The notes under the pieces are model-generated. The model worked only from the letters and a program-made list of their open reading frames with translations, did no database searches and was not told the origin of the DNA. From Escherichia coli (GTDB taxonomy: Bacteria > Pseudomonadota > Gammaproteobacteria > Enterobacterales > Enterobacteriaceae): DNA of 350 bases. How positions within the stretch are numbered: the stretch's first letter is position 1; each line of letters opens with the position of its first letter. The position numbers and the translations under genes are program-made. The DNA lies in NCBI RefSeq assembly GCF_003334765.1, contig NZ_QOWT01000131.1, one strand, 5' to 3'. This document shows, one piece after another, positions 1 through 348 of the stretch.

Positions 1-348
1 CGGGAATGGCTGATTCTGAACATGGCGGGACTGGAGCGTGAAGAATTCCGGGTGCTGTATCTGAATAACCAGAATCAGCTGATTGCCGGTGAAACCCTCT
101 TCACCGGCACCATCAACCGCACGGAAGTCCATCCCCGGGAGGTGATTAAACGCGCCCTGCACCACAATGCCGCTGCCGTGGTGCTGGCACACAATCACCC
201 GTCCGGTGAAGTCACACCCAGCAAGGCAGACCGCCTTATCACGGAACGTCTGGTACAGGCACTGGGCCTGGTGGATATCCGGGTACCGGACCATCTGATA
301 GTCGGTGGCAGCCAGGTTTTCTCCTTTGCGGAACACGGTCTGCTTTAA
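1..348 (+). CDS. yeeS: RadC-like JAB/MPN+ (JAMM) domain protein, UPF0758 family (YeeS/YkfG/YfjY-like); 5'-partial, C-terminal ~115 codons plus stop
   Basis: Seen in sequence: frame +1 has no stop from nt 1 to the TAA at 346..348 (nt 1..21 read R-E-W-L-I-L-N before the first Met at 22). The translation contains the JAMM signature [14 protein letters not shown] and a C-terminal ...[24 protein letters not shown] typical of RadC-like proteins. CTG-rich codon usage fits Enterobacteriaceae. Established knowledge: the H-x-H-x7-S-x2-D motif defines the JAB/MPN+ metalloenzyme fold. The symbol yeeS is from recalled similarity to the E. coli cryptic-prophage paralogs; I cannot separate yeeS from ykfG or yfjY without an alignment, so read the symbol as family-level. 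Confidence 0.88.
85..108. repeat. Perfect 9-bp inverted repeat (gccggtgaa / ttcaccggc) with a 6-nt spacer (accctc); potential stem-loop within the coding region
   Basis: Read directly: 85..93 gccggtgaa; 100..108 ttcaccggc is its exact reverse complement. It lies in frame over codons A-G-E-T-L-F-T-G. Its existence is certain; any function is unknown. Confidence 0.5.
190..231 (+). other. JAMM/MPN+ metal-binding motif H-x-H-x(7)-S-x(2)-D (predicted Zn2+ ligands His57, His59, Asp70, numbered from the Met at nt 22)
   Basis: Codons 190..192 CAC (H), 196..198 CAC (H), 220..222 AGC (S), 229..231 GAC (D), giving [14 protein letters not shown]. Spacing matches the canonical JAMM signature exactly. Candidate upstream glutamates (E35 or E40 in RTEVHPRE) could supply the catalytic Glu, but which one cannot be decided without a structural alignment. 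Confidence 0.85.

Follow-up and report, generated by a model that had tools for sequence, protein, structure and literature searches.

An ATG at an internal methionine codon of a YeeS-type RadC-like gene in a CP4-44-like island of Escherichia coli

The reading frame in the window and its genomic setting

By direct reading, frame +1 of the 350-nt stretch of E. coli DNA analysed here (the window) has no stop codon between nt 1 and the TAA at 346-348, and nt 1-21, which lie ahead of the ATG at 22-24, translate as REWLILN. An earlier note on this DNA had claimed that a gene runs off the 5' edge, with frame +1 open from the first nucleotide and REWLILN continuous with the downstream protein, and the direct reading bears this out. 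The probability of a 115-codon open frame by chance is ~0.004 under uniform codon use. The window translation matches the Pfam RadC family (PF04002) with E = 3.4e-44 and the match begins at model position 11, which indicates that the frame is real coding sequence already truncated on its 5' side at the edge of the window. The ORF list nevertheless contains 22..348 (108 aa) as the sole entry for frame +1, because ORFs that run off an edge cannot be listed by the tool.

Several E. coli chromosomes carry a sequence 100% identical to the window, and we inspected 4 of the at least 12 such loci. In strain D8 (locus L001), it corresponds to L001 5001-5350, and the CDS annotated there spans 4872-5348 (WP_001186181.1, "JAB domain-containing protein", 158 aa). 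All 4 identical loci, D8 and three others, have an annotated CDS of 477 nt and 158 aa with its start 129 nt 5' of window nt 1, so that codon 44 begins at nt 1 of the window and Met51 is encoded by the ATG at 22. The window thus covers the 3' 73% of a RadC-like gene (Table 1), and the 5' 129 nt of the gene (codons 1-43), its ribosome-binding site, and its promoter fall outside. The window ends 2 nt past the TAA, within the 68-nt spacer before a DUF987 (yeeT-like) gene.

Table 1. Positions of the features of the RadC-like gene that fall in the window
Feature	Position (nt)	Strand	Basis
RadC-like JAB-domain gene, codons 44-158 (R44 to L158) of 158	1-345	+	L001 annotation, Pfam RadC E = 3.4e-44
Codons 44-50, REWLILN, part of the predicted first JAB helix (residues 40-51); no leader or ribosome-binding-site region	1-21	+	AlphaFold model, alignments
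ATG, read as internal Met51 and not as a start codon	22-24	+	Background anti-SD pairing, Leu in 4 distant homologs, annotated starts upstream
Glu57 codon, invariant acidic JAMM residue, begins the first β-strand	40-42	+	Alignment; model strand 57-64
JAMM metal-binding motif H-x-H-x7-S-x2-D, intact (H107, H109, S117, D120)	190-231	+	Direct reading; residues invariant in the alignment
TAA stop of the RadC-like gene	346-348	+	Direct reading

The gene order in L001 is Ag43 adhesin, DUF932, antirestriction, RadC-like, DUF987, CbeA antitoxin, CbtA toxin, DUF5983, DUF957, and DUF4942, and the locus is a CP4-44-like integrative island module. Of the 5426 complete E. coli genomes, 4797 contain a match at 90% identity or more. 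The 12,910 places found in all correspond to a median of 3 and a maximum of 13 copies per genome, and only 7 of them are on plasmids. The same-direction neighbours are tightly packed, with spacers of 91 and 15 nt. Between the Ag43 terminator (L001 3154-3180) and the RadC-like gene, scanning with the consensus gave no sigma-70-like site on the + strand, including just upstream of the gene, where a promoter of its own was considered and rejected. From this we infer that one transcript would carry the gene together with the DUF932 and antirestriction genes that precede it. The homologous K-12 genes have been described as an apparent operon that includes the toxin-antitoxin pair, and they were found not to neutralise the toxin (PMC5371832). 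In the D8 island there are also a DUF5983 (yeeW-like) pseudogene, which is truncated, and a fragment of an IS110 transposase (L001 6509-6685 and 8189-8371); the island directly adjoins the kpsF/kpsE capsule locus (L001 9170 onward).

Two further observations concern the window itself. Codon 97 (window 160-162, CAC) encodes His97, in the context ALHHNAAA; K-12 YeeS and six other E. coli paralogs have Tyr97, and His is also present at this column in a Klebsiella plasmid homolog. On the - strand, a 303-aa ORF (L001 4425-5336) covers window positions 1-336 and spans the antirestriction and RadC-like genes. We rejected it as a gene, as it is unannotated in every record inspected, has no PADLOC match, and lies in a region explained by the + strand genes; it is most likely a mechanical antisense ORF.

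Domain architecture and named relatives

Residues 38-157 of the full protein match positions 2-121 of the 121-position Pfam RadC model (E = 7.3e-45). The protein passes the cut-off of the TIGR00608 RadC subfamily (149.1 bits, cut-off 133.85), falls below that of the NF000642 equivalog (161 bits, cut-off 180; profile positions 88-211 of 212 matched), and lacks the N-terminal region of the latter. On this profile evidence, it is a RadC-family JAB member and not the housekeeping RadC. The JAMM/MPN+ motif consists of E57 and H107-N-H109-PSGEVTP-S117-KA-D120, and its five residues are invariant in a 6-sequence alignment.

In an AlphaFold model of the full protein (pLDDT 79.3, pTM 0.73), predicted helices at residues 13-30 and 40-51 precede the first β-strand (57-64), and Met51 closes the first helix of the domain. 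The model has the α/β fold of the JAB/deaminase-like type and matches the RadC domain of the Chlorobium tepidum homolog 2qlc (Foldseek E = 2.8e-13, target-normalised TM 0.87, 124-126 aligned columns; rmsd ~2.1-2.5 Å, 38% identity), to which the sequence also aligns over residues 54-158 (E = 1.8e-25) with an identical HNHPSG...PS.AD motif. The 2qlc structure is the domain alone (~125 residues), whereas the E. coli protein adds an N-terminal segment of ~30-35 residues that includes the predicted helix 13-30. Weaker fold matches were obtained with archaeal JAMM1 and Rpn11-type MPN domains. The best fold match after 2qlc was Citrobacter BubCD, 9ea4 (bacterial ubiquitination-like; E = 3.9e-3); this match is weak, with a TM of 0.45 by query length and 0.19 by target length, and may reflect just the common JAB fold.

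Compared to K-12 YeeS (b2002, NP_416506.1; CP4-44 cryptic prophage), the protein is 99% identical over the common 148 residues. The two genes are alike in their RadC-like JAB domain and in their downstream synteny (DUF987/yeeT, cbeA, cbtA, yeeW), but differ in length, as YeeS has 148 aa counted from the equivalent of Met11 and the window gene has 158. YeeS starts there because, where the D8 island has the DUF932 and antirestriction genes, K-12 has yeeR directly adjoining yeeS. In CP4-44, the yeeR junction has replaced those genes together with the first ~24 nt of the RadC-like gene; similarity to K-12 begins at L001 ~4896, yeeS occupies L002 5309-5755 in the K-12 locus, and yeeR and yeeS overlap by 4 nt. 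YkfG (CP4-6) and YfjY (CP4-57) are K-12 paralogs of YeeS, and the K-12 paralogous modules have been described as yafX-ykfG-ykfH-yafW-ykfI and yfjX-yfjY-ypjJ-yfjZ-ypjF (PMC5371832). Near-identity to K-12 YeeS and the CP4-44 gene order downstream place the window gene in the YeeS/YkfG/YfjY group.

The chromosomal RadC/YicR type (NF000642/PRK00024, ~212 profile positions) shares the C-terminal JAB domain with the island protein. It differs in its N-terminal ~87 profile positions, which are missing from the island protein, and in location, as the island gene lies on a mobile element. The N-terminal part of the RadC/YicR type is a helix-hairpin-helix region (PMC3239186). Closer in build are the short RadC-like proteins of plasmids and phages (149-170 aa, 41-54% identity), which likewise consist of an N-terminal helical segment and the JAB domain: those of a Klebsiella IncFII plasmid (WP_032440561.1, 149 aa), Salmonella pESI (170 aa), a Pseudomonas plasmid (164 aa), and the Pseudoalteromonas phage KB12-38 (ASV43963.1, 152 aa). 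They differ from the island protein in having Leu at the Met51 column and in their gene neighbourhoods, the Klebsiella plasmid gene being flanked by ParM/stability genes, Hha, and DUF4942. A match was found in 2319 plasmid records, 1648 of them predicted to be conjugative. On the Klebsiella aerogenes IncFII plasmid (L003 2917-5432), the RadC-like gene lies near DUF4942, as it does in the E. coli island (L001 7016-7858). To judge from this comparison, conjugative plasmids may share part of the island module.

The start of translation

The questions of length and start were answered from annotated genome, plasmid, and phage collections. Six more divergent paralogs have the homologous start annotated with the length unchanged, and in 10/10 full-context loci the annotated start lies 129 nt 5' of the window; that of K-12 yeeS lies 99 nt upstream. 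In L001, Met1 (4872) is preceded by the Shine-Dalgarno (SD)-like sequence AAGGGGG, which pairs with the anti-SD at -10.7 kcal/mol and a 7-nt gap, and other paralogs have GGAGG or GGAGA at this position. An in-frame TGA, that of the antirestriction gene, lies 15 nt before Met1 in L001, and the first in-frame stop is 15-18 nt before Met1 in all 7 loci analysed. The earlier note had placed the start and promoter beyond the window, suggested that ~300 bp of upstream sequence be obtained, and given ~150-225 aa as the length of full-length family members; the ATG with its AAGGGGG lies inside that distance and the 158-aa product inside that range. An in-frame stop immediately before nt 1 would have spoken for a start at the ATG at 22, and in the 100%-identical loci the frame instead continues for 129 nt to the upstream ATG.

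We compared the codons upstream of the window with those inside it in seven paralogs. Variable sites at codon positions 1/2/3 numbered 3/1/10 in codons 1-43, with 71 synonymous versus 34 non-synonymous codon differences, and the pattern was similar in codons 44-158 (4/1/18; 151 synonymous versus 40 non-synonymous). Codons 1-43 are under purifying selection. Alignments with the plasmid and phage relatives (149-170 aa) begin at residues 7-38, upstream of Met51, and include the stretch homologous to codons 44-50. At the Met51 column, Leu was seen in 4 of the 5 aligned relatives, the fifth, with Met, being the 99% identical paralog K-12 YeeS. Together, these results indicate that the ATG at 22 is almost certainly internal Met51 of a 158-aa YeeS/YkfG/YfjY-type RadC-like gene of a CP4-44-like island, translated from an ATG 129 nt upstream. 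Met1 is likely to be the exact start, given the annotation, the strength of the SD, and a few substitutions at third codon positions. RefSeq already records the gene with this length, start, and family, and nothing in this is new. In L001, the antirestriction TGA and Met1 are in frame, 15 nt apart, with the SD between them (L001 4854-4874), a layout compatible with translational coupling. At another locus (L008), the spacer between the antirestriction and RadC-like genes is 1 nt shorter, and the in-frame relation is not conserved.

We weighed two readings in which the ATG at 22 would itself serve in initiation. As the genuine and sole start of a 108-aa protein, it has in its favour that it is the first ATG visible in the window, opening the only frame +1 ORF that the list could report, and that the 108-aa product would retain all JAMM catalytic residues. 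However, the frame is open for a further 129 + 15 nt upstream of window nt 1, homology and purifying selection run on upstream of the ATG, and a start there is used by no annotation inspected. Nor is the ATG preceded by an SD: nt 12-17, which lie 5-10 nt 5' of it, read gattct and are not purine-rich, and the 20 nt before it pair with the 16S anti-SD at no better than -4.4 kcal/mol, across an 11-nt gap; this is a background value, as 29% of all 20-mers in the CDS reach -4 kcal/mol or better. The earlier note had made the same point by quoting tgattctg; the string is present and the argument holds, although its position is nt 11-18 and not 10-17. The note had further argued that 108 aa would be too short for a complete JAB fold. 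Initiation at Met51 would indeed cost ~13-18 domain residues (the predicted helix 40-51, the first helix of the solved RadC domain) as well as the N-terminal helix, but the β-sheet core and all metal-binding and catalytic residues would be kept; the argument points in the right direction, is not decisive alone, and is weaker than it was stated. Upstream sequence, SD energetics, homology, and annotation thus rule out the ATG at 22 as the true start, and the chance of its being so is negligible. Some E. coli genes do have internal starts, and a shorter isoform initiated at Met51 alongside the full-length protein might be proposed because each of the 7 E. coli paralogs compared retains this ATG. 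Codons 44-50 are, however, invariant in DNA and protein in the 7 paralogs, like the rest of these recently duplicated genes, so that conservation of the Met51 ATG tells little, and the more distant relatives have Leu at this column. As the anti-SD pairing is moreover at background level and badly spaced, such an isoform is extremely improbable.

Two other readings concern the upstream end and the state of the gene. Translation could begin at the second in-frame ATG, Met11 (L001 4902, 99 nt upstream of the window), to give a 148-aa protein. Its equivalent is the annotated start of K-12 yeeS, a GGAG lies just 5' of it (-6.6 kcal/mol), alignable similarity to distant homologs starts near it, at TPxE, and residues 1-8 have a pLDDT below 50 in the AlphaFold model, as would fit a start at Met11. 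Against this, Met11 is simply the first ATG remaining in K-12, where the yeeR junction stands in place of the Met1 region; only 1-2 nt separate the GGAG from the Met11 ATG, which is too little for normal SD spacing, whereas the SD of Met1 has a canonical 7-8 nt gap and is stronger than that of Met11 in 4/7 paralogs. In the remaining paralogs, pairing is slightly stronger for Met11 than for Met1 in L008 (-7.4 versus -7.0) and about equal in L011 and L012 (-6.6 versus -6.4). RefSeq picks Met1 and not Met11 in 10/10 full-context loci, and the variable sites in codons 1-10 (1/0/4 by codon position) suggest that these codons are translated, although the numbers are small. A start at Met11 is therefore unlikely, and since either start lies outside the window, the conclusion of the earlier note would be unchanged. 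The gene might, on another view, be a decaying remnant of a cryptic island without a functional product, as suggested by its cryptic-prophage-like setting with nearby pseudogenes, among them the DUF5983 and IS110 fragments, and by the loss of the native 5' end from K-12 yeeS. The RadC-like ORF is nevertheless intact in 11/11 loci inspected, as is the JAMM motif, the excess of synonymous over non-synonymous differences in codons 44-158 argues against decay, and the module is kept in the large majority of complete genomes (4797/5426), often in several copies. Decay is thus highly unlikely, and translation of an intact 158-aa protein from upstream of the window remains the preferred reading.

Possible function on mobile elements

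In the mechanism we propose, the 158-aa RadC-like protein, translated from the ATG 15 nt past the antirestriction TGA, is a putative metal-dependent hydrolase that would be produced together with the antirestriction protein. The putative hydrolase may act for the mobile element during establishment, with a nucleic acid or an (iso)peptide bond as candidate substrates. A role in nucleic-acid processing, as a nuclease, has been proposed for the RadC-like family from domain fusions by Aravind and colleagues (PMC3239186, PMC5512222), and the resemblance of RadC-like proteins to metallopeptidases and their set of catalytic residues have been described (PMC11981726). Among the structural neighbours of our model, only JAMM (iso)peptidases were found besides RadC. 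As a name, "DNA repair protein RadC" has been called misleading (PMC3239186, PMC5512222, PMC11981726), and the literature on YeeS, YkfG, YfjY, or plasmid RadC function offers contextual hypotheses only, with no experimentally defined function. In PHROGs, the RadC-like protein is assigned to "DNA repair protein" (phrog_10276) and its left neighbour to "anti-restriction protein". The RadC-like protein matched no defence family in PADLOC-DB v2 at E ≤ 0.01, and membership in a defence system was rejected on this basis.

The short RadC-like JAB protein could be an establishment or counter-defence enzyme, for example one that removes a protein or ubiquitin-like conjugate or processes nucleic acid soon after entry. 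We regard this as a speculative and rather improbable reading, put forward because in these islands an antirestriction gene of the ArdB/KlcA type always directly precedes the RadC-like gene and because relatives occur on ~2300 plasmids, mostly conjugative. The sole hint of a conjugate-cleaving role is the weak BubCD fold match described above. The counter-defence reading has no bearing on the start-codon finding, for which the only unconventional reading left is a minor Met51 isoform, and the start-codon finding in turn does not advance what RadC-like JAB proteins do on mobile elements. Its relevance is one of annotation hygiene only, as a 350-nt cut makes a naive ORF caller report a 108-aa gene where the real product has 158 aa. 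The earlier note, which reasoned from the letters alone (a frame open to the edge, no ribosome-binding site, and too short a product for the domain), was correct in its conclusion.
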